Below, one piece after another: positions 21,665 through 61,551 of a stretch of DNA of 64,000 nucleotides (positions within the stretch are counted from its first letter, which is position 1; every line of letters begins with the position of its first letter). A program made the position numbers and the translations under genes. The notes beneath the pieces were generated by a model. It did no database searches. It saw only the letters and a program-made list of their open reading frames with translations, and was not told the origin of the DNA. The stretch lies in assembly GCA_016204995.1 (NCBI GenBank), contig JACQJR010000001.1, positions 167,793 through 231,792 of the forward strand, read 5' to 3'. This stretch comes from Candidatus Microgenomates bacterium (lineage in GTDB: Bacteria; Patescibacteriota; Microgenomatia; UBA8517; JACQJR01).

Positions 21665-21711
21665 GGCGTATTATACTAGATTTTAATCGTGTATAATATC
21701 TAACATAAATT

Positions 21712-36832: not shown

Positions 36833-38256
36833 TAGATAAGTTGATATTTTGGCGGTTCTTGATCTAAATATGACCTCATCTGCCTAGTGAATCCCTCATA
36901 ATGATATGGTTTAAATAACAATGCATGCTCACGCTCTATTAAGATTTCAGTATCACAAGGGACGCTTAAACTACCATAGTAAGGATACAACAAAGTTGGG
37001 TTGACAAGGTAGAATTTTCCCCCTGAAATAGTCGGAGGGTCGGTAGTATTATCATCAACTACCTCTTTTTTAGTATAAATATCTTCAAGCGTGTATTTAC
37101 TATTTTTAGTTTTTAAATAATTTTCCGCCTCTTCTCTAAATGCTGTAGGATAAATTAAATGTTTAAAAGTATTAAAACGGGGCCACCAGTTTACTAAAAC
37201 AATAAAAATGAAAGCGCTGAATCCCAATGCATAAAATAAGCGAGATTGACAAACTTTTCTAAATAAACTATCCAAAGCTATTATCCCATATATTAAAAGG
37301 AGTAGATAGAATGGACGGATTGTACGACCATATAAAACAGTTTTTGCTGCTATATGGGAAAATATTTCTAGGATTAAAAAAATCAGAATCAAATAAATTA
37401 TCCATGGAAAAAATTTCTTTTTTTCTTTAAGAAAAATTATTAGAGGGGCAAAAGCAATAATTAATAAACCCAGTATCCCATCGTATGATCGAACATATTC
37501 AGTTAAAAACGGTAAGACCGGTATAAAATCTCCTTGTGTTACAATACCCGATAAATGTTGTGCCTCATCAAAGTAAGATGGTGTTGCGCCGATAGCCATT
37601 GATATTAATTGAGCAGAAATAACAACTAGTGCAAAGCCACCGACAAAAAAAACCGATTTTTTTAATTTAAATCTTTTGTTGTAAATAAAAAGTAAAAATG
37701 GTATTGGAATAAGATAATAAAAATTACTCGGATAAATAAGAAAAGATACAGCACTAATTATTCCAAAATTTAAGGCTGATTTTCTTTTAATAAAAACATA
37801 TAAAGCTAAGAGTAAAGTTGCCAAACTAGCGTCATAAGGCAACATATGTCGTATATAGAAAATGGAAGAGATGGAAAAAATTAATACTATAGTAGCCAGG
37901 ATAGCCGTACTTTGGTTGACTATCCTTTGGAGAATCAAATAAACAAATATGGGAATTAAGGAATTAAAAACTAGGTTCAGCATTGTCCCGTATGGGACAT
38001 TCGGCTTCTGCACTTCAAGCCAAATTGGAATGGAATATAAAATTCCAAAACCGGGTTTGGCATTAATCCCAAAGACGCCTTGAAAATAAAGTGTTGGATT
38101 TTTTTCTTTCTCGCTTTGTTTCAAAGTATTAATTAGGCGCTTATAAAAAATTTCATCTCCAAAAAAATATTGCCCGTTGGGGTTAAATAAAGATAATCTC
38201 GTAAGCAGAATTAAAAACAGCAACAATATAAATAATTTGGGAGTTTTAAATCTCAT
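36823..38256 (-). CDS. Polytopic membrane protein (hypothetical, GT-C-like)
   Basis: N-terminal TM helix followed by about 11 further helices. Confidence 0.35.
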   Translation of the reverse strand: MRFKTPKLFILLLFLILLTRLSLFNPNGQYFFGDEIFYKRLINTLKQSEKEKNPTLYFQGVFGINAKPGFGILYSIPIWLEVQKPNVPYGTMLNLVFNSLIPIFVYLILQRIVNQSTAILATIVLIFSISSIFYIRHMLPYDASLATLLLALYVFIKRKSALNFGIISAVSFLIYPSNFYYLIPIPFLLFIYNKRFKLKKSVFFVGGFALVVISAQLISMAIGATPSYFDEAQHLSGIVTQGDFIPVLPFLTEYVRSYDGILGLLIIAFAPLIIFLKEKKKFFPWIIYLILIFLILEIFSHIAAKTVLYGRTIRPFYLLLLIYGIIALDSLFRKVCQSRLFYALGFSAFIFIVLVNWWPRFNTFKHLIYPTAFREEAENYLKTKNSKYTLEDIYTKKEVVDDNTTDPPTISGGKFYLVNPTLLYPYYGSLSVPCDTEILIEREHALLFKPYHYEGFTRQMRSYLDQEPPKYQLIYCK

Positions 38257-44474: not shown

Positions 44475-44518
44475 TTAGTTTTGATATGATATACTCATTA
44501 GACTGCAATTTGCAACCA

Positions 44519-45463
44519 ATGGCAAAGAGACAAAGCTTCTCCTTCGTTATCCCTGCCAAAAATGAAGAAGAGTCAGTTACTATTCTTTATAAAGAAATAA
44601 TTACATCATTAAGAGGGCTGTATAATCCTTTCGAAATTATTTTCGTGGATGATGGATCAACGGATCAAACTTTTACCAAACTTGTACAAATTAGAAAATT
44701 TGATAAAAGGGTAAAAATAATTCAATTACGTGGTAACTTTGGTAAATCCATAGCACTTCAGGTAGGTTTTGACCATGCTAAAGGAAATCTTATCTTTACC
44801 ATGGATGCAGACTTACAAGATAATCCCGCTGATATAAAATTATTTTTAGATAAAATAGGTCAAGATTATGATTTGGTATCAGGTTGGAAAAAGAAAAGAT
44901 TGGATCCTAATTTAAGTAAGGTAATACCATCTCGGATTATTAATTTCTTAACTAGATTTTTAACCCATGTTCAACTCCATGATATTAACTGTGGCTTTAA
45001 GGCTTACAAGAAGGAGGCTATTCAAAGTATAAATTTATATGGAGAGCTATATAGGTTTATACCAATACTGGCTGCTAAACAAAACTTTAGAGTTGGTGAA
45101 GTTGTCGTTTCCCATAGACAAAGAAAATATGGCAAAACCAAGTTTGGTTGGGAAAGAGGCATTAAAGGAATCTTAGATTTAGTCACTATTGTCTTTTTAA
45201 CTGGTTACGTCCAAAGACCAAGCCATTTCTTTGGCGGGTTAGGATTAGGATCATTTTTTGTAGGTTTTGTCATCGGTGCTTATATACTTTGGTTAAGAAT
45301 TACTACCGGTAGTATCCAGTATAGACATCCATTACTATTCTTGGGGATGTTACTGATGATTATCGGAGTACAGTTGATTTCTACCGGTTTACTTGCCGAA
45401 ACTATTGTTTACACAAAGAGTAAATTAGATTATACTTCTAAGATCAAGAAGATACTATTTTAA
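44519..45463 (+). CDS. GtrB/ArnC/Dpm1-like polyprenyl-phosphate glycosyltransferase (GT2 with C-terminal TM helices)
   Basis: FSFVIPAKNEE...IIFVDDGSTDQT...MDADLQD plus two C-terminal TM helices. Start at MAKRQS. The ORF-track start was 44486. Confidence 0.75.
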   Translation: MAKRQSFSFVIPAKNEEESVTILYKEIITSLRGLYNPFEIIFVDDGSTDQTFTKLVQIRKFDKRVKIIQLRGNFGKSIALQVGFDHAKGNLIFTMDADLQDNPADIKLFLDKIGQDYDLVSGWKKKRLDPNLSKVIPSRIINFLTRFLTHVQLHDINCGFKAYKKEAIQSINLYGELYRFIPILAAKQNFRVGEVVVSHRQRKYGKTKFGWERGIKGILDLVTIVFLTGYVQRPSHFFGGLGLGSFFVGFVIGAYILWLRITTGSIQYRHPLLFLGMLLMIIGVQLISTGLLAETIVYTKSKLDYTSKIKKILF

Positions 45464-47263: not shown

Positions 47264-48002
47264 ATATGAAAATATCTACAAAAATGAGTCATCTCATTTT
47301 TTATATACCTCACGGCACAAAATTATTATCAACTTAGTTAGAAAATATTTCAGAAAAAGCCATGCCTTGAAAATACTAGATGCTGGATGTGGTACGGGGT
47401 TATTTGCTAAAAAACTAGCTAAATTTGGAGATGTAACTGGAATAGATATTAGTTCCCGAGCATTAAAATTTGCCCAAAAAAGAGGTATTAAAACCAAAAA
47501 GGCCTCTGTCATTAAATTACCTTTTAAAGAAAATTATTTTAACTTGTTAGTTTCCATTGATGTTCTTTATCATCGGGCTGTAGAAGATGATGTAAAAGCT
47601 TTGAAAGAATTCTTTCGGGTTTTAAAACCCAATGGATTATTAATTATCCGCCTGCCAGCTAATAAATGGATTAAGACTATTCATGATCAACATGTTCATA
47701 CCCGCCAAAGATATGACAAAGTTGAGCTAAGAAATAAACTAATTAAAGTAGGTTTTGCTATTGAGAAATTATATTTTGTGGATGGTCTATTATTACCTAT
47801 CTCTTTACTGCAAAGTTTGTGGCAGAAAGTTGTTCCCGCCAAGACAACAGAATCTGCCGTTAAACCACTGCCAAAACTGATCAATAACATGCTCGCTTAT
47901 TTACTATCGCAAGATGTGGAATGGCCATTTGGTATCGGATTAATAGCAGTTGGCAGAAAACCATTAAGACACAAAATAACCCCGAGTAAAAAGACCAGTT
48001 AG
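47250..48002 (+). CDS. Class I SAM-dependent methyltransferase
   Basis: ILDAGCGTGLFA motif I. IDIS. VLYH...LKPNGLLII. Confidence 0.75.
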   Translation: MEIAEYENIYKNESSHFLYTSRHKIIINLVRKYFRKSHALKILDAGCGTGLFAKKLAKFGDVTGIDISSRALKFAQKRGIKTKKASVIKLPFKENYFNLLVSIDVLYHRAVEDDVKALKEFFRVLKPNGLLIIRLPANKWIKTIHDQHVHTRQRYDKVELRNKLIKVGFAIEKLYFVDGLLLPISLLQSLWQKVVPAKTTESAVKPLPKLINNMLAYLLSQDVEWPFGIGLIAVGRKPLRHKITPSKKTS

Positions 48003-49106
48003 TAAAAATCCTAAAATTAAATAAATAACTCCAGTAATAAATATTACGTGTTTTCTATCCTTTATTAATAGAGCCAAGCCTAAAAAGCCCGGGAAAAGAT
48101 GAAGTATATATCGCGGAGTACCGGCTAAAACTCCGGTAAACGAAATTAAAGCAAGTAATACCAACATAAAAACACCGTAAGATAGTCTCACTTTTTTCAA
48201 AACAAAAATTGATAAAGCTATATATAAAATCGTTGTCGCTAATTCTAATATTGCTATCCAATAAACAAGTAGATGTTTGTCAACATAAATTAGTATTTTT
48301 ATATACCTAAAAATTGTCTGGGCTGGCATGATAAACCTTTGTTGGTGCCAGGCGATCATTGACTTTTGAAAAAGGAGAAAGTCACCAAAGAATATCTGTA
48401 AATACATCATATAGATAATTATTCCCAGTCCTGTCAAAGATAGAGCAATGAAGCCAGTTTTTAAAAATTTCATCATGGATTTTTTTGAAATAAAAAATTT
48501 TTTCTTTTTAAAAAGCGCCTCGTTTTGTAAATACCATTCCACTGCTAAAGCTGGTAGCAAAGCAAGTCCAGATAAACGAGTCAAAACGGTTAAGCCGCCA
48601 AAAACTCCTGCCAAATGCCAACGGCCACGTCTGGCAAAATAGAAACTTGAAGTAGATAATAACAAAAATAATGAATCTGGATAAACTGCCTGATAAAAAA
48701 ACGCCAGAGGAAAAAAAGATAACAATATCAGGGCAAAATTTGCCAATCTTTCTGGATAATCAATCCTAATTATTTTATAAACCACCCATAAGCCTAAATA
48801 AAAGGAAACTAATGATATTAATATCCCAGCATAGAGAGAAGGAATTTTGAAAATTATATTTAACAAATAAACTAGTAAAGGGTAAAGAGGAAAAAAGGCA
48901 AAATTAAAATTTTGATAACCATTAGTCACAATATCTAAAAAATGCCTACCATCAAAATTAGCCCAAATCCAAACCCAATAGGGAGCTAGGTTATCAACTT
49001 GTTTACCCAGATAACCTTCCTGTAAATGTATTGATGAAGAAGCAATAAAAGCTAGCAGCAGAAAAAATACTCTTGATTGTAACATTAATTTTAGGAACGG
49101 ATTCAT
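47964..49106 (-). CDS. Polytopic membrane protein, GT-C-like (PIG-V/DUF2029-like mannosyltransferase fold candidate)
   Basis: N-terminal TM plus WANFDGRHFLDI loop. About 10 TM helices. Confidence 0.35.
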   Translation of the reverse strand: MNPFLKLMLQSRVFFLLLAFIASSSIHLQEGYLGKQVDNLAPYWVWIWANFDGRHFLDIVTNGYQNFNFAFFPLYPLLVYLLNIIFKIPSLYAGILISLVSFYLGLWVVYKIIRIDYPERLANFALILLSFFPLAFFYQAVYPDSLFLLLSTSSFYFARRGRWHLAGVFGGLTVLTRLSGLALLPALAVEWYLQNEALFKKKKFFISKKSMMKFLKTGFIALSLTGLGIIIYMMYLQIFFGDFLLFQKSMIAWHQQRFIMPAQTIFRYIKILIYVDKHLLVYWIAILELATTILYIALSIFVLKKVRLSYGVFMLVLLALISFTGVLAGTPRYILHLFPGFLGLALLIKDRKHVIFITGVIYLILGFLLTGLFTRGYFVS

Positions 49107-51172
49107 TGTGATAATCCAAAAACTTTTACTTTAGTAATCTTTAGAATACATGAATCAGGATTTTGAGTATCTAGAAATAAAAATTTTCCACTTCTAGCGG
49201 GGAGCAAAAAGACAAAAGTGTTTTTATCGCTCTTTAACCATTGTGTAGGTATTTGAGGATAATCAATAGTTTCTGGTTCTTGTCTCCAATTAATCCCATC
49301 ATTAGACACACGAATATAACCACCCACTTGGTGATTATCACAGTTTTTATCAAGATGCTTAATTTCCAATCTAGTTAGGAATATTTCTTGTTTAAGTTCT
49401 ATTTTAATTATATTATCTTTAATACCAAGGTTATTAACCATATATTCCCGTTCTTTTTCAAAACCAGGCTTAGTATGGGCTAGGTCATTTTTCCAGATTT
49501 TTAGTAAAGATACCCCATCAACTTTTATCTCATGAACCGGAGTCAAAAACATATCGTAGTAAGCAAAACCATACCAAGACTTAGGCGGCCAATCATGGGC
49601 TATCTCCATCACATATTCACCTTGCCTTTGTGGTCCACTCGGATAGGAATTAGAAAAATATATATCCGGCCTTAACTTAGAACGAGGCACGTTGGTCATA
49701 ACGTTAATTGGCAGCCCTAATTTGGCATCTGCCGGCGCATTTTGATTTAACCATTCTACTCCTTGTAAGTAGACATTGCCGTAGCTATTACCCCAAGAAG
49801 GAATATTTCTTTCTTGGGCACCGGATAAACCACCTATTAATTGATTAAAATAAACATTTTCATTAGGATGAATTTCTATTAATTCTCTGCCTATAAAAAT
49901 AAATGATAGAACTACAACTAATATAGCTGATGCAGACAAAAATTTATTTTTGATGTGCAATATTCCAAAAATACTTATCCCACATATAATTGCCAGTACA
50001 GGCAAGAATTCCATAATTTGTCTAACTCCTCCGTAAATATTTGCCCCAGGCAAAGACACTCGTGCTAAAGGCACCCATAACCAAAGTAAAGTTAACAAGG
50101 CTATATCACTTTTCCTTTTAATTAATAAATAAAGGGAAAACAATAAACCGATACCACTCATAATTAAAATTGGTAAGGGAGTAGTATAAATTATCCATTT
50201 GATAGGATAAGTATTAAAACCGAACAATATATACTTTTCCATACTGGTCGGTGTACCCAAACCAATACCTTGATAGTAATTAATTACTTCTCCTAACCTT
50301 CCCCAGTCAGACCATAAAAATGGCCAAAAAGCCAAGAAGATACCTATAACAATTACTGGAAACAAGAATAAGGATAAAATTATTCTTAAATTCAATGTGA
50401 TTTTTTTGGTTAGCAAACCAAAAACAAACCAGGGCCCTACTATAAGTGGTAAAAATAAAGCGTTAAATTTTGTTCCCAAAGCAAAACCGACAAGCACAGC
50501 TGATAAAACGATTAACTTGAAATTTTTAAGTTTAGCGCCAAAAAAGAAACTAATAATAGATAACCCAAAAAAAGAAGCCTCGGTTGGGTCTTTAATATTA
50601 AAATGACTTTCAGCAAAAAATAAAGGATAAAGAGCAAGAGATAAAGAGGCAGTTACTGATGGCCATAAACCAAAGTTATAATAAACAAAAATTCCTACCC
50701 CTAGAACTAATAAAGAGGCTATTACTATCTCAAATAAATGATATGATTCAATATCATCTGTGACGCCCAACTTTTGATAAAAAATATAGTTAAAGAAGGC
50801 AGAAAAAATATCACTAGTAGGCGGATGGCCTCCATCAAATCCGTTAACAAATAAAGAAAAGTTAAAAACATCAGACTGATAATAACTGCGACGAAAAGAA
50901 GGATCAGTAGGATTAGTATTTTTAATGCTATTTTTATAAAGCGGCGATTCCCCGGCCCTGTCTATAAAATCAGAGGTTCCTCGCAACTCTGGATATGAAG
51001 GCAAATCTAAAAAATCCCTCTTACCAGTTAAAAAATAATGTAAATATGCCTGTCCTCTTTGAAAATGTAACGATTCATCCCAATCAATACCATAATCGGA
51101 TAACGTTATAATTCCAATTATTAAAAATAAAATTGGTACGACGAAAATCGCAATCTTCTTAAAAAGTTGCAT
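49103..51172 (-). CDS. GT-C glycosyltransferase (group B; PMT/ArnT/COG1807-like) with C-terminal periplasmic domain
   Basis: The loop-1 motif DYGIDWDESLHFQRGQ carries the conserved DE. AESHFNIKDP. Multi-TM. Paralog of 51174..53162 and 58913..60937. Confidence 0.55.
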   Translation of the reverse strand: MQLFKKIAIFVVPILFLIIGIITLSDYGIDWDESLHFQRGQAYLHYFLTGKRDFLDLPSYPELRGTSDFIDRAGESPLYKNSIKNTNPTDPSFRRSYYQSDVFNFSLFVNGFDGGHPPTSDIFSAFFNYIFYQKLGVTDDIESYHLFEIVIASLLVLGVGIFVYYNFGLWPSVTASLSLALYPLFFAESHFNIKDPTEASFFGLSIISFFFGAKLKNFKLIVLSAVLVGFALGTKFNALFLPLIVGPWFVFGLLTKKITLNLRIILSLFLFPVIVIGIFLAFWPFLWSDWGRLGEVINYYQGIGLGTPTSMEKYILFGFNTYPIKWIIYTTPLPILIMSGIGLLFSLYLLIKRKSDIALLTLLWLWVPLARVSLPGANIYGGVRQIMEFLPVLAIICGISIFGILHIKNKFLSASAILVVVLSFIFIGRELIEIHPNENVYFNQLIGGLSGAQERNIPSWGNSYGNVYLQGVEWLNQNAPADAKLGLPINVMTNVPRSKLRPDIYFSNSYPSGPQRQGEYVMEIAHDWPPKSWYGFAYYDMFLTPVHEIKVDGVSLLKIWKNDLAHTKPGFEKEREYMVNNLGIKDNIIKIELKQEIFLTRLEIKHLDKNCDNHQVGGYIRVSNDGINWRQEPETIDYPQIPTQWLKSDKNTFVFLLPARSGKFLFLDTQNPDSCILKITKVKVFGLSQ

Positions 51173-51173
51173 G

Positions 51174-53162
51174 TTACTGTAAAATATAAATCTCTATTTG
51201 GGAATTATTTGAAAAACAAGAATTATTTTCCGAGGTAATAACTTTAATAAAGCGCAATTCTTTGCCAGATAAATAGAAGTTAACACTATTTTTACCTAAG
51301 TCGTATTGATAGATAACTTGTTCTGTACCTAAAGGCTCAACCTCTCTATACCATGATTGACCATCAAGCGAAGTCTCCACATAACCATTTTTGAGACATC
51401 TTGTTATGTCCTGACGATTTAAAACAATCCTGGTTGCTTCCACATTTTTCTTAGCGTCAATCGTTAAAATATTATTTTTCCAGTTTGATCTGATATCTTT
51501 ATCTAAGACTTCATTCCTTCTCATATGGGGTTTGGTATGTTCAAAATCATTTTTCCAGACCTTAGCCAGAGCAATATTGTCTATTTTAACTTCATAGACC
51601 GGATCTAAAAATCTCTCCAGATAATCCCACACCGAAGGATATTGCCTGGCCGCTCCTTGATAAGTTAATTCCATTAAATACTCTCCACCCCTATTGATGC
51701 CTGTCCAATTAGTGCCGGAAAAATCAATATCCGGCCTTAATTGAATTAAAGGCACATTTTGACCTGTCCCCTGGACTAAGGCAAGACGGGCATTTGGGGG
51801 AGCATTTTTATTAATCCATTGGATGGCTTGCCAATAAGCATTACCATAGGAATTTCCGGCTGAAGGGATACCCGCTTGATAAGCACCCTTTAACCCACCA
51901 ACTAAAAAATTAAAATAAACATTTTCGTTAGGATGAATCTTAGTTAAAACTACTAGTTGTGGAATAAAAGCTAATAAAATGATAACTGATATCCAAAAAT
52001 TCAACTTTTTATTTAATAGCTTCCTTATAAACTCCGCTCCTAAACCAGCTAAAAGTGCCATCGCTGGCAAAAATTCCATAATTTGCCTAACGCCACCGTA
52101 AATTACGGTATTTGGCAGACTAACGCGAAAAATAGGTATACCTAACCATAATAACCATAACCAGTTAGTTTTTTCCCTACCGGGCTTGGATATGGCATAT
52201 ATTAAACCCACACCGCTTAGCAACAAAACCCATGGGGGTGTAGTTACTATAATCCAAAAGATGGGGTACAAATTAAATCCTCCAATACGGTATTCGGCCG
52301 GTTGGTAATTGAAACCTAAAGCAATATCTTGGTAGTAATTTAATACTTTACTAATATGATCCCACGTATCTTGCCAAAGAAATGGCCAAGTAATAAAAGG
52401 AATCGCAATTACTATAAAGGGAGATATCACTAGCATCCTCTTGTAACGTAGAGGAATTTTCTTAATGGAATTCAAAATAATCTTCGGTCCCCTTTTAATT
52501 AATTGAAAGTATCTTAAGAATAGATAAGGGATAACGATAAATGGTAAAAAGATAATATTTAATTTTGTCCCCAACGCTAAACCTGCGCCTATACTGGCTA
52601 TTATCAACCATTTCCAATTACCTTTTTCCAAAGATTTCCAGAAAGCGAAAATAGTTAAGGCGAAAAAAGCTGTTTCTGGTGGATCTTTGATATTAAAATG
52701 ACTTTCGGCAAAAAATAAAGGATAAGTAGTAATTACCAAACTGGCTATGATACTGGCAAAAATTCCATGAGTAAGGTAGGCAAAAATTGCCACAATTAAA
52801 ATTACCAAGGTTGAAATAAATAAGTTATATAAATGATAAGCTTGGATATCCCCTGCTAATCCCAATTTTTGATAAAAAATAAAATTAGAAATTGCTGCCA
52901 ACAGATCACTAGTAACTGGATGTCCCCCATCCCAATCGTAAAGGGCTTTAACATCATAACCATTGAAAAAACTTGGCTTTTGAGAAATCGATCGGCCCTT
53001 TTGCTCAATTTGACCAGTTAAGAAGTAGTAAAGATAACCCTGACCTCTTTGAAAATGAATTGGCTCATCCCAATTAATACCATAGTCATTTAAGGTTAAA
53101 ATACCTGCTATTAAAAAAATTACAGGCACTAAAAAAACAAGAATTTTCTGCTTTAGAGTCAT
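51174..53162 (-). CDS. GT-C glycosyltransferase (group B) with C-terminal periplasmic domain
   Basis: DYGINWDEPIHFQRGQ. FAESHFNIKDP. Contains the 112-nt tract identical to 59569..59680. Confidence 0.55.
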   Translation of the reverse strand: MTLKQKILVFLVPVIFLIAGILTLNDYGINWDEPIHFQRGQGYLYYFLTGQIEQKGRSISQKPSFFNGYDVKALYDWDGGHPVTSDLLAAISNFIFYQKLGLAGDIQAYHLYNLFISTLVILIVAIFAYLTHGIFASIIASLVITTYPLFFAESHFNIKDPPETAFFALTIFAFWKSLEKGNWKWLIIASIGAGLALGTKLNIIFLPFIVIPYLFLRYFQLIKRGPKIILNSIKKIPLRYKRMLVISPFIVIAIPFITWPFLWQDTWDHISKVLNYYQDIALGFNYQPAEYRIGGFNLYPIFWIIVTTPPWVLLLSGVGLIYAISKPGREKTNWLWLLWLGIPIFRVSLPNTVIYGGVRQIMEFLPAMALLAGLGAEFIRKLLNKKLNFWISVIILLAFIPQLVVLTKIHPNENVYFNFLVGGLKGAYQAGIPSAGNSYGNAYWQAIQWINKNAPPNARLALVQGTGQNVPLIQLRPDIDFSGTNWTGINRGGEYLMELTYQGAARQYPSVWDYLERFLDPVYEVKIDNIALAKVWKNDFEHTKPHMRRNEVLDKDIRSNWKNNILTIDAKKNVEATRIVLNRQDITRCLKNGYVETSLDGQSWYREVEPLGTEQVIYQYDLGKNSVNFYLSGKELRFIKVITSENNSCFSNNSQIEIYILQ
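51827..51938. repeat. 112-nt tract 100% identical to 59569..59680 (dispersed repeat inside two otherwise diverged GT-C paralogs)
   Basis: Aligned by eye. Both tracts encode IHPNENVYFNFLVGGLKGAYQAGIPSAGNSYGNAYWQ. Confidence 0.8.
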
Positions 53163-53265
53163 GTATTATAAAGCGGTTTCAAAACCTTTCTACAAGCTGC
53201 CGCTAGGCCTCAAAGCAAAGCCGATGGCTGAAGTTTTGAAACAGCTTCTATGTATTCTATCATCT
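53161..53265. repeat. Intergenic palindromic element: 11-nt direct repeats (ATGTATTaTAA / TATGTATTcTA) flanking imperfect inverted repeats GCGGTTTCAAAAC ... GTTTTGAAACAGC; MITE-like or operator-like
   Basis: Read directly from the sequence. Local GC is higher than the surrounding sequence. Confidence 0.3.
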
Positions 53266-53299
53266 AGAGTGTTTTTAAAGAAGAAATTACTACAAAAAT

Positions 53300-53328
53300 T
53301 TGCATATAAAAGGTAGTTTTGCTAGAAT
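53300..53328 (+). promoter_or_regulatory. Putative promoter (-35 TTGCAT, 17-nt spacer, -10 TAGAAT) ending 7 nt before the ATG at 53336
   Basis: Read from the sequence. No Shine-Dalgarno. Confidence 0.35.
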
Positions 53329-53335
53329 TCTCAAT

Positions 53336-54709
53336 ATGTCACTCAATCCTGAAATAGTAAAAAAGGCTATTCAGCCACCAGTTAATTTATTAAAAAGAGT
53401 GGACTTTTTTAATTTATCATTCACCAAACTTATTACTAGAAAGCCAGAAAAAACCTCAGAAGAGTTGGATCAAGCTTTCTATAGTTTAAGCAGATGGCTT
53501 AATAATCAAGAAAATTCTAACTATGCTGCCATTTTAGTTAGAGAAACAGTAGAATTTTTACAGAATAACGAACAGGACATACTTTCTGAAAGTCACAATA
53601 TTATCCATGACGCTGAAGCTATCACTTGTCTATTAGACGATAAAGGACGAGAAATTGAAATAGATAATGCCACTATTTTTATTGCCACCGCCGTTACATT
53701 GTTACATGATCTGGGCCGAACAACTGAAAAGATAGTTATTGATCAGCCACTTGAAAATCAAACACAACTCCACCATGATCAATTAAGCTATAGAGCAGCC
53801 AGAAAAATATTAAAGGAAATTAGTAAAGATTCAGAGTTACCAGAGGATATAAAATCAGCCTTAGAATTATTAATTTTTCATGGACTCCGTCATAGTGGAG
53901 AGTTAAATCAAAAACCTTATATTGGCTTGTCTTATGATCTTGACCGTCGACAACTAACCGGTTCCACTACTGTAGTTCGCGATATCCCCTTTTTTGGTGG
54001 TTGGCAAAATATTAGTTTATCAACCGATGAGATAAAAAACTGGCCTGCTGGCTACCTTTATCCTCACACCTTTTTTCTTCAACAAAGATTTGCTAGTAAT
54101 ATTTTTAGAGATGAACCGTTAAAGGAAAAACATCAACTTGACGAGGTTTATAACAAACTAGCCGTTGAAGGATCAACTATAGTACTTTTAGCCTGTGGAG
54201 ATAATCAAGATGCCAAAGAATTGGCTTTTGACGTTGATTTAGGATTAGTTGATATTCCAGAGACCAGCATAACTGATAAAGGTGGTAGGCGTTGGTGGCC
54301 TAAAAGAAGACTTCCTGCAGGCACTTTAGCTAAATCGGCAGAGGAAGCAAGAAATATTGAAGAACTAATAAATAGCAAACCATTGTCTAAGATAGACTTT
54401 GAATATATTATGGAAAGTTATCTGGAAGCTTATACCACATTTATAGATGAAAATCACCTGTATCAAATAAAAGAAAGCATTAGAGAATTTGACCAAGATG
54501 ATAGGATAAAATGGGCAAGGGTGCTTTTCTACTCTCATCGTAAAAACCAAGAAAGATATGCGCACAGAATTAAAATTTTTTGGCAAGAGAAGAATAGGGG
54601 AAGCTTCTTAGGAAAGATAGCTGAACCCTTCATTGATGTGCTAGCGGCAAAACATCATCAACGCGAGAATTTGGAGAAAGTGTTCAAATCCTATTGGTCA
54701 AACATTTAA
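53336..54709 (+). CDS. HD-domain phosphohydrolase (paralog of the 6159..7727 N-terminal domain)
   Basis: IIHDAEA. LLHDLGR. FHGLRH. YDLDRR. The ORF-track start at 53300 is a TTG; the ATG at 53336 is preferred. Confidence 0.5.
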   Translation: MSLNPEIVKKAIQPPVNLLKRVDFFNLSFTKLITRKPEKTSEELDQAFYSLSRWLNNQENSNYAAILVRETVEFLQNNEQDILSESHNIIHDAEAITCLLDDKGREIEIDNATIFIATAVTLLHDLGRTTEKIVIDQPLENQTQLHHDQLSYRAARKILKEISKDSELPEDIKSALELLIFHGLRHSGELNQKPYIGLSYDLDRRQLTGSTTVVRDIPFFGGWQNISLSTDEIKNWPAGYLYPHTFFLQQRFASNIFRDEPLKEKHQLDEVYNKLAVEGSTIVLLACGDNQDAKELAFDVDLGLVDIPETSITDKGGRRWWPKRRLPAGTLAKSAEEARNIEELINSKPLSKIDFEYIMESYLEAYTTFIDENHLYQIKESIREFDQDDRIKWARVLFYSHRKNQERYAHRIKIFWQEKNRGSFLGKIAEPFIDVLAAKHHQRENLEKVFKSYWSNI

Positions 54710-54715
54710 AATAAT

Positions 54716-55288
54716 TTACAGCTTTTCTTTTATCGACTCGAAAACCTCACGAGAATAAGTGTCAGCAGTCGCCGGGTTAGAAGGATCTAGAAGAGTATTA
54801 GCTATCACCGTTAAACGAGTATCATCTTCCAATGTTTCATAGGTATGAAAAATAAATTGCGGCATCCAAATACCATCACCCCTCTCTAAAATAAAATCTC
54901 TTTTATCTCCTTTTAAATCCTCTAAAATTAACCTTGCCCTGCCATTATTAAACGTAATAATTTCTTTGCGGATACGATGAAATTCTAAGGCTCCAATTGT
55001 ACCTAATATTAAACCAGCTACCTCATAACTTCTAAAACCACGAATGTCGTAGCCAATTCTTTCCACTTCTGATTCCTCATAGTTAAACAAATCTTTTATT
55101 AGCGCCGATATTTCAGCAAAATTATAAGCAAAGAGAACTGATAGTCTGACTTCTGATTTAGTAATAAATGGGCCAAAATTTTCAATTGGTTTATTGTTAG
55201 TTACATAAGAAGATAATATTCTAACTTCCGCTACAGAAGTGAATTGCTCTGGCCTTTCGTTTGGATTGAATATTAATCTTTCTACCAT
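54716..55288 (-). CDS. Cupin-fold sugar 3,4-ketoisomerase-like protein (FdtA/QdtA/WxcM C-terminal-domain-like)
   Basis: RGFRSYEV...NGRARLILEDLKGDKRDFILERGDGIWMPQFIFHTYETLEDDTRLTVIANTLLD aligns with FdtA RGFHAHK...NGSCRVILDDG...GLYVGPAVWHEM...VLASDYYD. Confidence 0.45.
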   Translation of the reverse strand: MVERLIFNPNERPEQFTSVAEVRILSSYVTNNKPIENFGPFITKSEVRLSVLFAYNFAEISALIKDLFNYEESEVERIGYDIRGFRSYEVAGLILGTIGALEFHRIRKEIITFNNGRARLILEDLKGDKRDFILERGDGIWMPQFIFHTYETLEDDTRLTVIANTLLDPSNPATADTYSREVFESIKEKL

Positions 55289-55297
55289 AATTTAAAT

Positions 55298-57769
55298 CTA
55301 GCCTTTAGGAAAGGCTTTAACTAAATTAGCTACCTTTTCAACTTCTTCGTCAGTAATAACGGCATCTAAAGGTAGAGTCACTACCCGAGAAGCTATATAT
55401 TCTGTCACTGGAAGTTTGGCATGATTATATTTGGCAAAAGCTGGTTCTTTATTAAGGGCTAGAAAATGGAAAGAGCAACCAACGCCATTTTCTTTCATAT
55501 ATTCAAAAAACTCATCACGCTTCTTTTCTACTAATATCGGATAAAGATGAGTCCCTTTATTATTAAATCCTAATAATTCATTATAAAGAGCTACTACTTC
55601 CTTTCGTCTTTGCTCAAATTGATCAAGGCGAGCCAGCTGCACCCTACCTAAGGCTGAATTAATATCAGTGGTATTAAATTTATAACCAGGAAATTCCACT
55701 TCATAGACCCATTTTGATTTAAGTTGATACCTTTTCCAGGCATCACGCGACAGACCATGCAACCGGGCCTTCCTTAACCAATCGGCCACTTTCTCATCAT
55801 TGGTAGTAATCATCCCGCCCTCACCCGTAGTCATATTTTTGGTAGCGTAAAAAGAGTAACAACGGGTAAAAGAATTAGTATTGTCGCCATTTTTAGGAAT
55901 CAAATGAGCACTATCTTCAATAATTGGCAGATCTGTTTCTATTATTGCCCGATTCCCCCCATAGTGGACTGGCATTACTGCTTTCGTTTTTTGGGTGATA
56001 ACTTTTTCCAATGATTTTTGATCCATACAAAAATTTTCTTTGTTAATATCAGCAAAAACTGGTGTGGCTCCAGCATGAACAATTACAGAAACTGTCGCAG
56101 GGAAAGTAAAGGCCGGTACAATCACCTCATCTCCTGTCTTAATACCTAAAGCCTTGAGGGAAAGAAAAAGAGCTGCCGTACAACTATTAACTGCGATGGC
56201 ATATTTTGCCCCAACGTAACTTGCAAATTCCTCTTCAAACTTAACTGTTTCTTCTCCCATCGTCAACCAACCACTTTGTAAAATTTGTGCCACCGCATTT
56301 ACCTCCATCCGCTTAATATTGGTACGAGAGAAAGGAATTACACCATTACTGGAATTATGATTTGTTAAATTGGGAACAAACTTATTTAAAGTCATTAGAG
56401 CTAATTCTATATTATTACTCTCTACTGCCTTTCTTAAATCAGCTAAATCATAAAGATCAATATTGGCCGCATGCTGACTAACCCGAAAAATTCTACCATG
56501 ACCAGTTTTCTCTAGATATTCATCTTCTGCGATTAATTGTTCAGTAATTTTTTCACCCGGCCGTCGCCCTATGTATTTAACTTGAATCTCTTCTCCAGGA
56601 ACAAATCCAGCTAGTTGAATCATAAATTTGGCCAAGTCATCGATTCTAAATTGCTCACCCATGTCTAGCACAAAAATCTCTCCACCGCGACCGATGACGC
56701 TGGTATGAAGCACTAATTGCACTGCTTCTGGGATAGTCATCATAAACCTGGTCATTCTAGTATCAGTTACCGTAACAGGACCGCCACTGGCAATCTGTTT
56801 TCTAAAGATTGGCATAACACTACCATGACTATCCATCACATTACCAAATCTGACAGCGCAATATTTAGTCCTACCTAGATCATTAAGACTGGCTAAAATA
56901 TGTTCTCCCACGAGCTTTGTCGTTCCCATCACACTTTGAGGGCTGGCCGCCTTGTCAGTAGAAATATAAACAAACTTTTCCACTCCTTCTTCGTAAGCCA
57001 CTTTGGCTAGATTTTCCGTACCAAAAACATTATTGCGAATTGCCTCCAAGGGATGGCTTTCCATTAAAGGTACGTGTTTAAAAGCGGCGGCATGGAAAAT
57101 GACATCAGGCCTGTTCTTCCTTATTACATCCTGTACTTTTCTTCTATCCTGCATGTTACCAACCATGCATTCAAAATTTCCTTCCGATGCTAGTTCTGCT
57201 AACTCAAACCCTAACTCAAATAAACCATTTTCCCACCAATCAAAAGCGATTAATTTTTTAGGAGAAAATTGAATAAGCTGACGACAAATTTCTGAGCCGA
57301 TTGAGCCAGCTGCTCCTACTACTATCAGAGTTTTATCTTTGAACTCACTCTCAAAAATTGGTTGTTCTTTTTTGACAATAGCCTTACCGAATAAATCTTC
57401 TATTTTTAGTTCACGGAATTGTTCCAGTTTTACCTTTCCTTGAACCATCTCTAGGGTACGAGGAACAATTTTAAAAAATACTCTCGCCCCTCGGCACGCT
57501 TCTAAAATTTTTCTGATGGTACTTCCTTCAGCGGAGGGAATCGCTATTAAAATTCCGTCTACAGAATATTTTTTAATCAATAGTAGTAATTCATCAATTT
57601 TACCTAAAATTTTAACGCCTTTGATGTCTTTGCCGATTTTGGTTTTATCATCATCAATAAAACCAACAACTTGATATTGTTTTTTAAAATGAAGACGTAG
57701 CTCGTTTAATAATTCTTCTCCGGCTACACCAGCTCCAACTATTAATACTTTTTGAGAATTTTTATTCAT
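55298..57769 (-). CDS. Bifunctional fusion: PglF/CapD/WbpM-like UDP-sugar 4,6-dehydratase (soluble, two Rossmann domains) plus C-terminal DegT-family aminotransferase (PglE-like)
   Basis: N-terminal LIVGAGVAGEEL...GFIDDD linker domain and LIVVGAAGSIGSEI...HAAAFKHVPLME...STDKAASPQSVMGTTK catalytic SDR domain. C-terminal ILQSGWLTMGEETVKFEEEF...AVNSCTAALFLSL DegT domain. The ORF is continuous. Confidence 0.7.
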   Translation of the reverse strand: MNKNSQKVLIVGAGVAGEELLNELRLHFKKQYQVVGFIDDDKTKIGKDIKGVKILGKIDELLLLIKKYSVDGILIAIPSAEGSTIRKILEACRGARVFFKIVPRTLEMVQGKVKLEQFRELKIEDLFGKAIVKKEQPIFESEFKDKTLIVVGAAGSIGSEICRQLIQFSPKKLIAFDWWENGLFELGFELAELASEGNFECMVGNMQDRRKVQDVIRKNRPDVIFHAAAFKHVPLMESHPLEAIRNNVFGTENLAKVAYEEGVEKFVYISTDKAASPQSVMGTTKLVGEHILASLNDLGRTKYCAVRFGNVMDSHGSVMPIFRKQIASGGPVTVTDTRMTRFMMTIPEAVQLVLHTSVIGRGGEIFVLDMGEQFRIDDLAKFMIQLAGFVPGEEIQVKYIGRRPGEKITEQLIAEDEYLEKTGHGRIFRVSQHAANIDLYDLADLRKAVESNNIELALMTLNKFVPNLTNHNSSNGVIPFSRTNIKRMEVNAVAQILQSGWLTMGEETVKFEEEFASYVGAKYAIAVNSCTAALFLSLKALGIKTGDEVIVPAFTFPATVSVIVHAGATPVFADINKENFCMDQKSLEKVITQKTKAVMPVHYGGNRAIIETDLPIIEDSAHLIPKNGDNTNSFTRCYSFYATKNMTTGEGGMITTNDEKVADWLRKARLHGLSRDAWKRYQLKSKWVYEVEFPGYKFNTTDINSALGRVQLARLDQFEQRRKEVVALYNELLGFNNKGTHLYPILVEKKRDEFFEYMKENGVGCSFHFLALNKEPAFAKYNHAKLPVTEYIASRVVTLPLDAVITDEEVEKVANLVKAFPKG

Positions 57770-58910
57770 GTATTATTTGCAAAAAACTTCTAACCGATTT
57801 TTCAATACTAAAAAGTTCGGCAACTTTTTTAGTATTTCTAGTAAAACTTACTCTTTGTGATTTTTTACTCGGCAAGGTAGCTAATATTTGAGCTAACTGT
57901 TCTACGCTTTCTGATTTGAAATTTAAACCAATATGATATTTCTGAACCAAGTATTTTAGATCTGGCAAGCTGGCAACAATTAGTGGGGTACCATTTTTCA
58001 TGCTTTCGGAAAAAACCAAAGGAATACTATCACTTCTGGAGGGAATTATCAACCAATCTGACATTGCTAAAACCTGGGCAATTTTAGTTTTATCATTAAC
58101 GTTACCATAAAATTTAATAAAATTAAAAATACCTTCTGTTTGGGCTTTTTCTTTAAGACCCTTCAAAAGAGAACCATCTCCTAACATGTGAATTTCAAAT
58201 TTATTAATCTGGTCCTTAATCTTGATTAGAGCATCCAAAAAAATATCTGGTCCTTTAACCAATTCCATTCTACCAATAAATGATAAAGTTATTTTGTTTT
58301 TATTCTTAGTAATTGAAGTAGCTGGTTTACTAACAAACTGACTGGCTGATGGCAAAAATAAGCATTTTTTACCTGAAATAATCCTTACTTTATTAGCTAA
58401 ATCAATACCATCAGCCAATAAATAATCTGCTTCTCTAAGAGTTTGCTTAATTAAATATCCAACAATCGGAAACCTAGCGTAAACATAAACATCTGACCCC
58501 AATACCCAAATAGCATAAGGAATGCCAAACTTTTTTTTAACAAAGTAAGCAAATAATCCGGCAGGAAAAGCCCACATTGCCAAATTAATGTTAGGCTTTG
58601 TTTCTTCCATAATTTGGTTGGTTCTTTGTAAACCCTTAATAAAAAATAAAATTAGGTCATAAATCATAAAGGGATGCCAAATTTTTAATTGACCTAATTT
58701 TTTATTTACTCCCCAACCAAACCAATAAACAGGCACCTTTTGAATTTTCAATTTACTATCTCTCTTGCCAGGACAAACTACAAAAACATTTTGTTTTTCT
58801 TTAATTAACTCACCAGCAAAATCGTGGACGAATATGCCTGCATTTTGCCTATCGGTGGAGGAAGAGGGGTAGTTATGAGAAATAATACCTATTTTTAATT
58901 GCTGCTTCAT
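57762..58910 (-). CDS. GT4-like (GT-B) glycosyltransferase
   Basis: LSFIGRMELVKG...MLGDGS...LIIPSRSDSIPLVFSESMKNGTPLI (EX7E-like). Start at MKQQLK with an ATGA overlap. The ORF-track start was 58961. Confidence 0.65.
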   Translation of the reverse strand: MKQQLKIGIISHNYPSSSTDRQNAGIFVHDFAGELIKEKQNVFVVCPGKRDSKLKIQKVPVYWFGWGVNKKLGQLKIWHPFMIYDLILFFIKGLQRTNQIMEETKPNINLAMWAFPAGLFAYFVKKKFGIPYAIWVLGSDVYVYARFPIVGYLIKQTLREADYLLADGIDLANKVRIISGKKCLFLPSASQFVSKPATSITKNKNKITLSFIGRMELVKGPDIFLDALIKIKDQINKFEIHMLGDGSLLKGLKEKAQTEGIFNFIKFYGNVNDKTKIAQVLAMSDWLIIPSRSDSIPLVFSESMKNGTPLIVASLPDLKYLVQKYHIGLNFKSESVEQLAQILATLPSKKSQRVSFTRNTKKVAELFSIEKSVRSFLQIIHE

Positions 58911-58912
58911 TA

Positions 58913-60937
58913 TCAATCTTTTAGAATAGATAATTCTATAGCAGGATCGTGTAGAAGACAAGATTGGGCGTCTTTGGCTATAATTTTTATATATTTAGCA
59001 GGTCTGGCTGAAAAATAATAATAAATAGTATTGTCCTTTTTTGTAAGTTCACTTACTTGCTCTGTTGGAATAGGCTCTATTTCTTGACTAAATTTAATAC
59101 CATCAACTGAAGTCCAAATGTCACCATTATTTCCTTGGCAACCAATACCAATATATCCTAAAGTTAATCTCGTTAACAAAACTGGTTTTTCTAACTTAAA
59201 AATAATTTCACTATCAATTATTTTTTGACTAATTAGACCCTTGTACAACACTTCAGGTTTTCGATATTCCAGTTTGGTATGTTCTAAATCATTTTTCCAT
59301 ACCCTGGCAATTGCCATATCATCAACTTTAACTTCATAAACCGGTTCAAGTAATGTGTCTACATAATCCCAAGCATAAGGGAATAGTTTTAAAATTTTAG
59401 CAGGCGTAAGTTCTATTAAATATTCTCCCTCCCTATTAATACCAGTCCAATAACTATTTGAAAAATCTAAATCTGTTCTTAATTCGCTAGTTGCGATATT
59501 AAGACTTGTTCCCTGTATTAAAGCAATTCTAGAGTTCTGTTCAGCGTGCTTATTGAGCCATTGGATAACTTGCCAATAAGCATTACCATAGGAATTTCCG
59601 GCTGAAGGGATACCCGCTTGATAAGCACCCTTTAACCCACCAACTAAAAAATTAAAATAAACATTTTCGTTAGGATGAATTTTATAAAGAGGATATATAC
59701 TAATTAATAATAAACTTGCCACGAATAGACAATTTATTAAGATAGAATATCTAGGCAAAAATTTAATAAAATGATGACGCAACCAATCCGCACCTACCCC
59801 ACTTATTAGAGCCATAGCGGGGATATATTCCATAATTTGCCTAACCCCCCCATAAATAGAAGTATTAGGAAAGCTAACCCGACCTACTGTAACAATAAAA
59901 ATCAAAAACCATAACACAAAAACATAATTATTTTTATACCAATTATTTCTCCAATTAATTAATCCTGCTAGAAAACAAATTAGAATTAAAGGTGGTGTCG
60001 TGTACAAAATCCAACGGGCAGCATAAAAATTCCAAGCCGTGAGAGGATTAAAATCGAATGAAGATTCTGTACCTAATTCCTTGTAATAGCTAAAAACTAA
60101 AACTAAATTCCCAAAAATATCTTGCCAAAGAAAAGGCCAAATAGCTATCAAAATAGTTAGCATAATAAGAGGAAAGATTAATAATATTAAAAGTACATTT
60201 TTTTGAAAAAGGAAACTGACAAATTTCTTTTTTTCTTTAATTAGAAGCAATAACGCCCAAGGCGTAACAATAAATGGCGAAAATAAAATATTAAATTTTA
60301 CACTAAAAGCTAAACCAGCAGCGATAGCTGCAAACAAGATGTATTTAATTTTTTGTTTGTTAAAGATTTTCCATAATAGATAAAGTGTTAATACAAAAAA
60401 GAATGATTGAGCAGGATCCTTAATATTAAAATGACTCTCGGACCAAAAAAGCGGATAGCTACCCATAAAAATAGCTGAAAATATCCCGGGCCCTAAACCA
60501 AAAGTTTCTATAGCGAATAAAAAAACTAATCCCACTAAAAGGCTGCTAATAAAAATATTAAAAAGGTGATAACTAGCTATATCACCCGCTATTCCTAGTT
60601 TTTGATAGAAAATATAATTAAATAAGGCTGATAAAATATCATTTAGGGGAGGATGACCTTTGTCATCAACAAACCATGTTTGTGCACCATATGCATCATG
60701 CTGATAATAGCTTCTAGAGTGGTAATTTGGATCAGATCGGGCTTTGTCTAGTTGGTAAGGAGGTAAACCTTCATAAGTTGCTTTACCAGTTAAAAATAAT
60801 CTTAAATAACCTTGGCCTCTTAGAAAGTGCTCGGGTTCATCCCAAGACAAACCATAATGGCTATTAGTCAAAATGCCGTCAATTAAAAAAATTAGCGCAA
60901 CTAGTAGAGATAAAAAGAGATTTTTCTTCAGATGCAA
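58913..60937 (-). CDS. GT-C glycosyltransferase (group B) with C-terminal periplasmic domain
   Basis: HYGLSWDEPEHFLRGQ. WSESHFNIKDP. Contains the 112-nt tract identical to 51827..51938. Confidence 0.55.
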   Translation of the reverse strand: MHLKKNLFLSLLVALIFLIDGILTNSHYGLSWDEPEHFLRGQGYLRLFLTGKATYEGLPPYQLDKARSDPNYHSRSYYQHDAYGAQTWFVDDKGHPPLNDILSALFNYIFYQKLGIAGDIASYHLFNIFISSLLVGLVFLFAIETFGLGPGIFSAIFMGSYPLFWSESHFNIKDPAQSFFFVLTLYLLWKIFNKQKIKYILFAAIAAGLAFSVKFNILFSPFIVTPWALLLLIKEKKKFVSFLFQKNVLLILLIFPLIMLTILIAIWPFLWQDIFGNLVLVFSYYKELGTESSFDFNPLTAWNFYAARWILYTTPPLILICFLAGLINWRNNWYKNNYVFVLWFLIFIVTVGRVSFPNTSIYGGVRQIMEYIPAMALISGVGADWLRHHFIKFLPRYSILINCLFVASLLLISIYPLYKIHPNENVYFNFLVGGLKGAYQAGIPSAGNSYGNAYWQVIQWLNKHAEQNSRIALIQGTSLNIATSELRTDLDFSNSYWTGINREGEYLIELTPAKILKLFPYAWDYVDTLLEPVYEVKVDDMAIARVWKNDLEHTKLEYRKPEVLYKGLISQKIIDSEIIFKLEKPVLLTRLTLGYIGIGCQGNNGDIWTSVDGIKFSQEIEPIPTEQVSELTKKDNTIYYYFSARPAKYIKIIAKDAQSCLLHDPAIELSILKD
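59569..59680. repeat. Second copy of the 112-nt identical tract (see 51827..51938)
   Basis: Aligned by eye. Confidence 0.8.
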
Positions 60938-60945
60938 TAATTATA

Positions 60946-61551
60946 CTACTCAATTTGGGCAAGTTTGGTTTTAACGGAGTCTAGATAGTTGATATATTCG
61001 CTAAGGGAACCTTTTTGATCATCTGATAGTTGAGTAATTAAATAATTCAACAATATCTTTTGTTTATCAATCGACATCATAAATTTAGTTTTTAAAATCG
61101 ACATATTTACAGATTTTAGGTCTGCTGCTTTTTGAGTAAAACTTAATGCTTCTTCTACTTTACTTTTACCAAAATCAAGGGTTTTTTTGGCATTTTGATA
61201 ATCATTTTTCATCAATAATTTCTCTGCCTCTAATAATCTCTTTTCTGAAAGAGTAATATTGTATTCTGCTTTATTATAGTTTCCGAAAATAAACCATCCC
61301 CTTAATGACTCCTTAAAGAATTTTAAAAAATACAAGGAATCACTAGCGGTTTTACCAGCCGATAAGGGCCAAAAAAGTTGATAAGAATCAACGGGTGTAG
61401 GAACGGGAGTAGGCGAGGGGGTTAATAAAACAGTTTTAGTAGCCATTACATTAGAGGAAGCTAATAGTAAAAGTAAAATGACCCAAAAATTAATTAAAAA
61501 ACTTCTCATCTCCCTAAACCTAGTATAGGTATAAGCCATCCGTCCTGTCAA
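60946..61551 (-). CDS. Membrane-anchored/secreted hypothetical protein with Pro/Thr-rich linker
   Basis: N-terminal hydrophobic segment FLINFWVILLLLLASS, then TPSPTPVPTPV linker. Remainder predicted helical. Confidence 0.3.
   Translation of the reverse strand: MTGRMAYTYTRFREMRSFLINFWVILLLLLASSNVMATKTVLLTPSPTPVPTPVDSYQLFWPLSAGKTASDSLYFLKFFKESLRGWFIFGNYNKAEYNITLSEKRLLEAEKLLMKNDYQNAKKTLDFGKSKVEEALSFTQKAADLKSVNMSILKTKFMMSIDKQKILLNYLITQLSDDQKGSLSEYINYLDSVKTKLAQIE

Follow-up and report, generated by a model that had tools for sequence, protein, structure and literature searches.

Anciently diverged GT-C glycosyltransferase paralogues in a glycan island of a Microgenomates bacterium

The 64-kb stretch of contig JACQJR010000001.1 from a Candidatus Microgenomates bacterium (hereafter the window) encodes three related membrane glycosyltransferases (GTs) of the GT-C class, here named paralogues A, B and C. 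A (49103-51172, minus strand, 689 aa) and B (51174-53162, minus strand, 662 aa) stand back to back, with 1 nt between the stop codon of B and the start codon of A, and C (58913-60937, minus strand, 674 aa, TTG start) is found 5.7 kb upstream of B, from which five genes separate it. Our analysis revealed that they are further members of the known PMT_2-clan GT-C enzymes; their family is large, uncharacterised and equipped with a CBM32-like appendage. They are ancient and widely conserved paralogues, not recent local duplicates. We consider it fairly probable that these anciently diverged enzymes move single sugars linked to undecaprenyl phosphate (Und-P) onto an acceptor at the cell surface.

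Kinship, age and distribution of the three copies

When the 74 long open reading frames (ORFs) of the window were compared by BLASTP, A, B and C matched each other over their full length with 40-45% pairwise identity (E from 1e-140 down to 0), and every remaining ORF matched them at E>=6e-4 only. Their alignment has more than 200 invariant columns, which span the loops, the membrane helices and the soluble C-terminus, so that the resemblance goes beyond low-complexity transmembrane (TM) segments. The kinship is real and not an artefact of hydrophobic composition. A preliminary description of this DNA had placed three ORFs at these coordinates, two of them back to back and all sharing several motifs; the ORF list and the alignment agree with it, apart from deviations of single residues. 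DYG(I/L)xWDE...HF.RGQ.Y is exact in A and B and starts with HYG in C; AESHFNIKDP is likewise exact in A and B and reads SESHFNIKDP in C; GIPSAGNSYGNAYWQ is exact in B and C and reads NIPSWGNSYGNVYLQ in A. Compared with B, A has an insertion of about 25 aa in its first outside loop. The TTG start of C is supported by its N-terminus, which aligns with those of A and B.

The closest relatives of each copy were found in other genomes (66% identity for B, 61% for A and 61% for C, versus 40-45% among the copies). In a neighbour-joining tree of 295 homologues, the A, B and C clades comprised 119, 126 and 50 members with one window copy each, and the A and C clades were both recovered in 199/200 bootstrap replicates (54 taxa). 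Furthermore, the gene order is kept in distant relatives. For example, a 51-kb contig (L001), whose copies are 54-64% identical to those of the window, carries DUF5667, C-type, then after an interval GT4, CapD, B-type, A-type and GT2 genes, and two more contigs (L002 and L003) carry DUF5667, B-type, GT4, CapD and DegT genes followed at some distance by A-type and GT2. Because the three clades are separate and the order persists in such distant relatives, the duplications predate the divergence of the lineages. The fraction of identical residues encoded by the same codon was 0.52-0.57 between the paralogues outside a 112-nt tract (see below), indicating synonymous sites near saturation; for this reason we used per-domain amino-acid identity in place of dN/dS (ratio of non-synonymous to synonymous substitution rates).

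The preliminary description had taken local duplication of acceptor- or sugar-specific transferases as a sign that the surface glycan diversifies. The same data bear on a strong form of this reading, in which the duplication is recent, diversification still goes on and strains differ in copy number. The adjacency of A and B speaks for it, as do the fast-evolving discoidin-like domain (see below), the approximately 27 of 77 related loci which hold at least two copies within +-10 kb in varying combinations, and the 112-nt conversion tract, by which the paralogues would still exchange sequence. Against it, the copies are only 40-45% identical, with nearly saturated synonymous sites outside the tract. 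They fall into three separate clades of 50-126 members each, the three types occur in equal order in a contig only 54-64% identical, and in two other assemblies this region matches the window at 100% identity. The phylogeny largely refuted the reading of a recent duplication with ongoing diversification, which we regard as extremely improbable.

The tract lies at 51827-51938 in B and matches 59569-59680 of C, the probable donor, with 100% identity. It is the longest exact match between B and C, the next being 19 nt, and the two genes otherwise share about 58% DNA identity. Inside the tract the same codon was used at 36 of the 37 identical-residue codons, compared with a fraction of 0.57 gene-wide. 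B carries there the C-clade residues GAYQAGIPSAG, where B-clade orthologues have GAKE..IPSWG, and returns to B-type residues right after. It looks like a recent gene conversion from C to B. Contig CAZKXL010000001.1 of GCA_964556865.1 ends at 51881, 55 nt into the tract (0 mismatches over 12,779 nt), and the Logan assembly of SRR12113383 ends at 51856, 30 nt into it (0 mismatches over 4,716 nt); both ends are as expected for de Bruijn assemblies broken at a repeat. Since the tract breaks short-read assemblies, the copy number and linkage of these genes will be under-called in metagenome-assembled genomes (MAGs).

A profile search of 1.84 billion cluster representatives returned 6019 proteins at E<=1e-10, of which 1025 reached E<=1e-30; the matches include forms of about 550 aa without the discoidin-like domain. 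The 110 relatives in species-representative genomes belonged nearly all to Microgenomates (Woese-, Davies-, Blackburn-, Levy-, Roizman-, Gottesman- and Chisholmbacteria), and by this distribution the family is almost restricted to that group. Many third-party-annotation (TPA) MAGs titled 'uncultured Gammaproteobacteria bacterium' also hold family genes, with 40-47% identity and often in multiple copies (L006-L008, L010, L012, L014, L016, L019 and others); this label is probably a placeholder or an error. In the literature we found no study specific to the family in Microgenomates, Patescibacteria or the Candidate Phyla Radiation (CPR).

Family assignment and predicted architecture

The assignment of A, B and C to GT-C enzymes, made already in the preliminary description, is borne out by Pfam, by the fold of a model of B and by an acidic loop motif. 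B and C scored 40.9 and 38.1 bits with Pfam PMT_2 (PF13231; gathering cut-off 26.1 bits) and A came just under it with 23.0 bits, and all 65 family members scanned had a PMT_2 match at E<=0.01. Only B passed with Pfam PMT (PF02366; 45.3 bits, profile positions 90-231 of 245), for which A and C gave nothing at E<=1 and 21 of the 65 members reached E<=0.01. No PMT_4TMC or MIR domain was found in the three by the Pfam scan, and they thus do not have the complete PMT domain plus C-terminal 4-TM PMT module that mark full GT39 enzymes. In NCBIfam neither A nor C matched a curated family at E<=1, and the sole match of B was Agl23-like (28 bits versus a cut-off of 126). ArnT families of NCBIfam also gave no match to any of the three at E<=1, which does not place them in GT83. 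The same was true of Pfam STT3 (PF02516), and 'WW' is absent from A, B and C, so that the WWDxG motif of STT3/PglB/AglB (GT66) is lacking. In NCBI, A is 100% identical to 'glycosyltransferase family 39 protein [Candidatus Microgenomates bacterium]' and B to a 'phospholipid carrier-dependent glycosyltransferase' of Candidatus Microgenomates bacterium; the family is therefore already annotated, though generically, under these two names.

The AlphaFold2 model of B, built from a 132-sequence alignment, reached a pLDDT of 95.7 and a pTM of 0.94. It has the multi-helix GT-C membrane fold seen in PMT, ArnT, STT3 and PglB, with structural-neighbour scores of 22.2 for Pmt4, 21.3 for ArnT, 20.7 for Pmt2, 20.2 for STT3B and 19.2 for PglB. 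According to this model the proteins consist of a membrane catalytic module of about 11 helices, an outside alpha/beta domain and a variable CBM32/discoidin-like domain. Hydropathy and the distribution of Lys and Arg (positive-inside rule) fit a predicted topology with the N-terminus inside and the conserved loops and C-terminal 250 aa outside. The preliminary description had given the C-terminus as a periplasmic domain of roughly 200 aa; its extracytoplasmic location agrees with the predicted topology, and its length has to be corrected to about 250 aa in two domains.

TM1 is helix 3-22 in the model, and W31-D32-E33 (codons 53064-53072, minus strand) follows about 10 residues further on, in the first extracytoplasmic loop. 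GT-C enzymes are described as typified by an Asp-Glu ('DE') motif in loop 1, on which the activity of Pmt depends (PMC8698208); we took the definition of the acidic first-loop motif (DE or modified DxD) from PMC8698208 and PMC8035078. The WDE loop described earlier corresponds to this motif, and is presumed to be the catalytic or acceptor-activating site. AESHFNIKDP (aa 152-161 of B, codons 52680-52709, minus strand) would form a short outside loop between TM3 and TM4, as suggested by the helices of the model and the positive-inside rule, and may be analogous in position to loop 3 (D233) of Streptomyces coelicolor Pmt. Across the 132 sequences and all three clades D32, H36, R39, H81, P82, E153, N157, K159, D160, K200, R346, R359 and E363 are invariant, and E33 is at least 90% conserved. 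Also invariant or nearly so are W31, G40, an Asn/Tyr/Gly/Trp block at aa 410-540 and two cysteines of the last domain. The possibility that some copies are pseudo-enzymes was ruled out, as the putative catalytic residues are all invariant in A, B and C.

The alpha/beta domain (aa 411-545 of B; 51528-51932, minus strand; secondary structure from the model) includes HPNENVYFN, GNSYGNAY, GEY and WKND, and residues invariant throughout the family are densest here, at 13 per 100 aa, with a within-clade identity of 0.60-0.62. The last domain (aa 546-662; 51177-51527, minus strand) has the beta-sandwich fold of CBM32 and F5/F8 type C (discoidin) domains in the model, and may bind carbohydrate. Pfam gave a faint F5/8 type C signal at the C-terminus, and an F5_F8_type_C match in 16 of the 65 members scanned. 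Its conserved cysteine pair (C589 and C649) fits an extracytoplasmic location. In family members about 530-600 aa long the match is confined to profile positions ~5-550, and this domain is absent (P0335-P0337, P0364, P0399, P0404, P0407 and others); the domain therefore appears to be optional within the family.

Identity among A, B and C was 0.47-0.56 in the first outside loop, 0.49-0.67 in the alpha/beta domain, 0.40-0.44 in the membrane core and 0.23-0.33 in the discoidin-like domain, which is the most variable region within each clade as well (0.28-0.40). A search for clade-discriminating residues yielded only 3 positions that are at least 80% conserved within each clade and yet differ between clades, and gave no clear sequence signature for different donors. 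Differences in acceptor or sugar specificity among the three are plausible; their catalytic residues are the same, and what sets the three apart is probably the position or context of the acceptor and not the chemistry.

Proposed function and the surrounding glycan island

In the mechanism that we favour, an ArnC/GtrB-type GT2 encoded nearby (44486-45463, plus strand) would use a nucleotide sugar to charge undecaprenyl phosphate with a sugar at the inner membrane face, the lipid-linked sugar would be flipped to the outer face, and A, B and C would each pass this single sugar to an acceptor there. The acceptor would most likely be a cell-surface glycan or the glycan of a glycoprotein, held in place by the carbohydrate-binding-like domain. 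Single-sugar transfer is favoured because of this neighbouring GT2 and because of precedent. In Gram-positive bacteria, systems composed of a GT-A, a flippase and a PMT_2-type GT-C decorate wall polymers: the GT-A makes a C55-P-sugar, the flippase brings it to the outer face and the GT-C transfers the sugar to the polymer outside the membrane. Some large GT-Cs also bear carbohydrate-binding domains, which are assumed to hold the acceptor (PMC8035078). Residues 17-307 of the window's GT2, the likely maker of the lipid-linked donor, matched ArnC (9hwj, E 7e-39) and GtrB (5ekp, E 4.5e-30) over full length, and its NCBIfam matches were ArnC-like (E 1e-46) and PgfS-like (E 6e-37), both below the equivalog cut-offs. 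Of the 77 related loci, 55 had a homologue no more than 10 kb away, a count that has no background control. As genomic context, the gene in the window and those in the 55 loci suggest putative use of a polyprenyl-phosphate-linked donor by A, B and C.

However, several points weigh against this proposal. Donor, sugar and acceptor are all inferred, and the co-occurrence with GT2 is uncontrolled, GT2 genes being common in any glycan island. No GtrA- or Wzx-type flippase was recognised within the window, where the only leftover small hydrophobic ORF (14535-14939) had no Pfam match; Wzx-type genes (Polysacc_synt) occur in L002 and L003, and in the present genome a flippase gene may lie outside the window. 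Solved structures gave no significant profile match, the best being TMEM260 (E 0.07 with a 3-sequence and 5.7 with a 132-sequence profile); for this reason the roles of the catalytic residues were assigned by position only, and the family is to be seen as a distant branch of the PMT_2 clan. The B clade had moderate bootstrap support (113/200, 54 taxa). The discoidin-like domain diverges as fast within the clades as between them, and so it alone does not explain the split into A, B and C.

The main rival to single-sugar transfer onto a surface glycan is protein O-glycosylation, in which the three would act as protein O-mannosyltransferases (PMTs) in the strict sense and transfer sugar from polyprenyl phosphate to Ser/Thr of surface proteins such as pilins or the S-layer, each paralogue serving one class of substrates. 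Pmt4 and Pmt2 are indeed among the top structural neighbours of the B model, but ArnT, with its lipid acceptor, scored as well as the PMTs, and STT3B and PglB nearly so. B exceeded the Pfam PMT cut-off, and the DE and H-P-P-type residues of loop 1 are similar to residues that were mutated in the Pmt of S. coelicolor (PMC8698208). On the other hand, the Pfam PMT match is limited to positions 90-231 of the profile and to 21 of the 65 members at E<=0.01, PMT_4TMC and MIR domains were not found by Pfam, and the domain resembling a carbohydrate-binding module points to a glycan acceptor. The nearby GT2 resembles PgfS of the streptococcal Pgf protein-glycosylation operon, with the sub-cut-off score given above. 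A Pro/Thr/Ser-rich stretch in the neighbouring DUF5667 protein, seen in the window and L001, would suit a protein acceptor but is missing from the L003 orthologue. Taken together, protein O-glycosylation by A, B and C appears unlikely, although it deserves consideration. Transfer of a preassembled glycan en bloc from undecaprenyl diphosphate to a protein or polymer, in the manner of an oligosaccharyltransferase (OST), is a minor rival which we regard as very unlikely. GT4, PglF-like and PglE-like genes, which could build such a glycan, come after C and after its orthologues. However, A, B and C show neither WWDxG nor any 'WW', their Pfam signal is PMT/PMT_2 and not STT3, and a scan of every window ORF of 150 aa or more found no initiating phosphoglycosyltransferase.

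The entire window is a glycan island. GT2 and GT4 genes are numerous in it, and it also encodes several nucleotide-sugar dehydratases and aminotransferases, together with a formyltransferase, radical-SAM enzymes and at least 11 GT-C-like membrane proteins. Directly upstream of C lies a gene for a small DUF5667 protein with an N-terminal hydrophobic segment (60946-61551, minus strand; Pfam E 3.5e-10). Its TTG start was probably called about 15 codons early, and the true start would be near 61506, as the orthologue alignment begins at residue 16. DUF5667 genes adjoin a B- or C-type gene in L001, L002 and L003, homologues occur in 23 of the 77 related loci, and the protein may be an accessory or acceptor-handling subunit of the GT-C enzymes. 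Its Pro/Thr-rich linker was considered as a conserved O-glycosylation acceptor and rejected, being absent from the L003 orthologue. The DUF5667 domain was also found fused within a 1179-aa AftD-like GT-C protein (14882-18421, minus strand; aa 689-742).

Downstream of C is a cytoplasmic GT4 of GT-B fold (57762-58961, minus strand; Pfam Glycos_transf_1 E 1e-25), whose position is likewise taken by a GT4 gene in L001-L003. Its listed TTG start overlaps the end of C by 49 nt, and the ATG at residue 18 (MKQQLKIG...), at about 58910 and abutting the C stop codon, is the more likely start. The next gene (55298-57769, minus strand) encodes an 823-aa fusion of a CapD/PglF-type 4,6-dehydratase with a DegT/PglE-type aminotransferase (Polysacc_synt_2 E 6e-105, DegT E 4e-97), whose PseB-, PseC- and ArnB-like NCBIfam matches are all below equivalog cut-offs; going by the family names, it would make a precursor of the 4-amino-4,6-dideoxy-hexosamine type. 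The two activities are encoded by separate adjacent genes in L002 and L003, and only a 472-aa dehydratase gene was called there in L001. Two ORFs that separate B from this fusion gene, of 469 aa (53300-54709, plus strand; faint HD-domain signal) and 190 aa (54716-55288, minus strand; faint cupin/JmjC signals), have no homologue in any of the 77 related loci and therefore look like a lineage-specific insertion into a gene order that is conserved apart from them. A 380-aa PMT_2-type membrane protein (47964-49106, minus strand; PMT_2 31.3 bits; homologues in 21 of the 77 loci) probably shares an operon with B and A, since its start overlaps the stop codon of A by 4 nt. Promoter and terminator scans gave a weak hint of two transcription units, with counts not above shuffled sequence (58 versus 55.8 and 15 versus 10.0).

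Elsewhere in the window we observed at least 8 further membrane proteins that are GT-C-like or bear F5/8 type C domains (14882-18421, 19464-21803, 24921-27164, 32236-34386, 34391-36832, 36823-38256, 38253-40751 and 47964-49106). The first matches Pfam GT-C_AftD, and hhalign identified 19464-21803 (probability 97%) and 24921-27164 (88%) as distant homologues of A, B and C. A formyltransferase, two DegT aminotransferases and an epimerase/dehydratase at 8868-13020 (minus strand) recall, together with the ArnC-like GT2 genes, the Arn (formamido-sugar) pathway, and may be the source of a formylated amino sugar for one GT-C enzyme of the window.

A more far-reaching idea, which we regard as improbable, is that A, B and C constitute, with the other GT-C-like genes (at least 8) and several GT2 genes of the ArnC type, an extracytoplasmic assembly line for a Microgenomates-specific wall glycopolymer, in which the tightly coupled products of B and A form a heterodimer. 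It would be comparable to the building of mycobacterial arabinan by the Aft and Emb enzymes, and the heterodimer to Pmt1-Pmt2 or EmbA-EmbB. If true, an ultrasmall bacterium would have in this island, which makes up about 10% of its 609,565-bp contig, one of its principal systems for building the envelope. The cell envelopes of the CPR are almost unknown experimentally. The significance of our results rests mainly on this scant knowledge and on the unusual density of GT-C genes in the island; they do not overturn the current understanding. The A-, B- and C-type trio nevertheless provides concrete targets for studying the surface display of epibiotic or ultrasmall cells, and because of the invariant catalytic residues, the confident model and the conserved neighbourhood, expression, structural work and glycan analysis are feasible.

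Comparison with known systems

The three paralogues are most readily compared with the multi-component transmembrane glycosylation systems of monoderm bacteria. Like these, they are Pfam PMT_2 membrane GT-Cs with a genomic partner, a GT2 of the ArnC/GtrB/CsbB type, as presumed maker of the Und-P-sugar, several GT-A/GT-C pairs occur per genome, and the island of the host has no annotated outer-membrane pathway. No sequence similarity to the proteins of those systems was found, although no search aimed at it was made, A, B and C add a conserved alpha/beta and a CBM32-like domain, and the GtrA-type flippase was not recognised in the window. With the GT39 PMTs (yeast Pmt1/2/4 and actinobacterial Pmt) they share the DE motif after TM1, a conserved His-Pro pair in loop 1, an acidic residue in the outside loop that follows and a number of TM helices near 11, and B passes the Pfam PMT cut-off, whereas A and C fall short of E<=1. 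However, identity is about 12-13% with no significant sequence match to a solved PMT, and in place of MIR and PMT_4TMC domains the C-terminus consists of the alpha/beta and discoidin-like domains.

ArnT (GT83, undecaprenyl-phosphate-L-Ara4N:lipid A transferase) is similar in its PMT_2 clan and in having a partner GT2 resembling that of the window, ArnC, and the formyltransferase and aminotransferases at 8868-10980 recall ArnA and ArnB. It differs in that A, B and C have no NCBIfam ArnT match, share about 12-14% identity with it and carry the extra discoidin-like domain. STT3, PglB and AglB (GT66) are also of the GT-C class, with an acidic motif in the first outside loop and a soluble outside C-terminal domain, but A, B and C lack WWDxG and a Pfam STT3 match, and Pfam places their family with PMT/PMT_2. 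Mycobacterial AftD and EmbA/B/C resemble them in the order of domains, a GT-C module followed by extracytoplasmic domains of carbohydrate-binding type, and in the presence of many GT-C paralogues (at least 11 in the window), which in mycobacteria act on one polymer from a polyprenyl-phosphate sugar. In contrast to AftD and Emb, A, B and C are much smaller, have a different type of CBM and match neither Pfam Arabinose_trans nor AftD.

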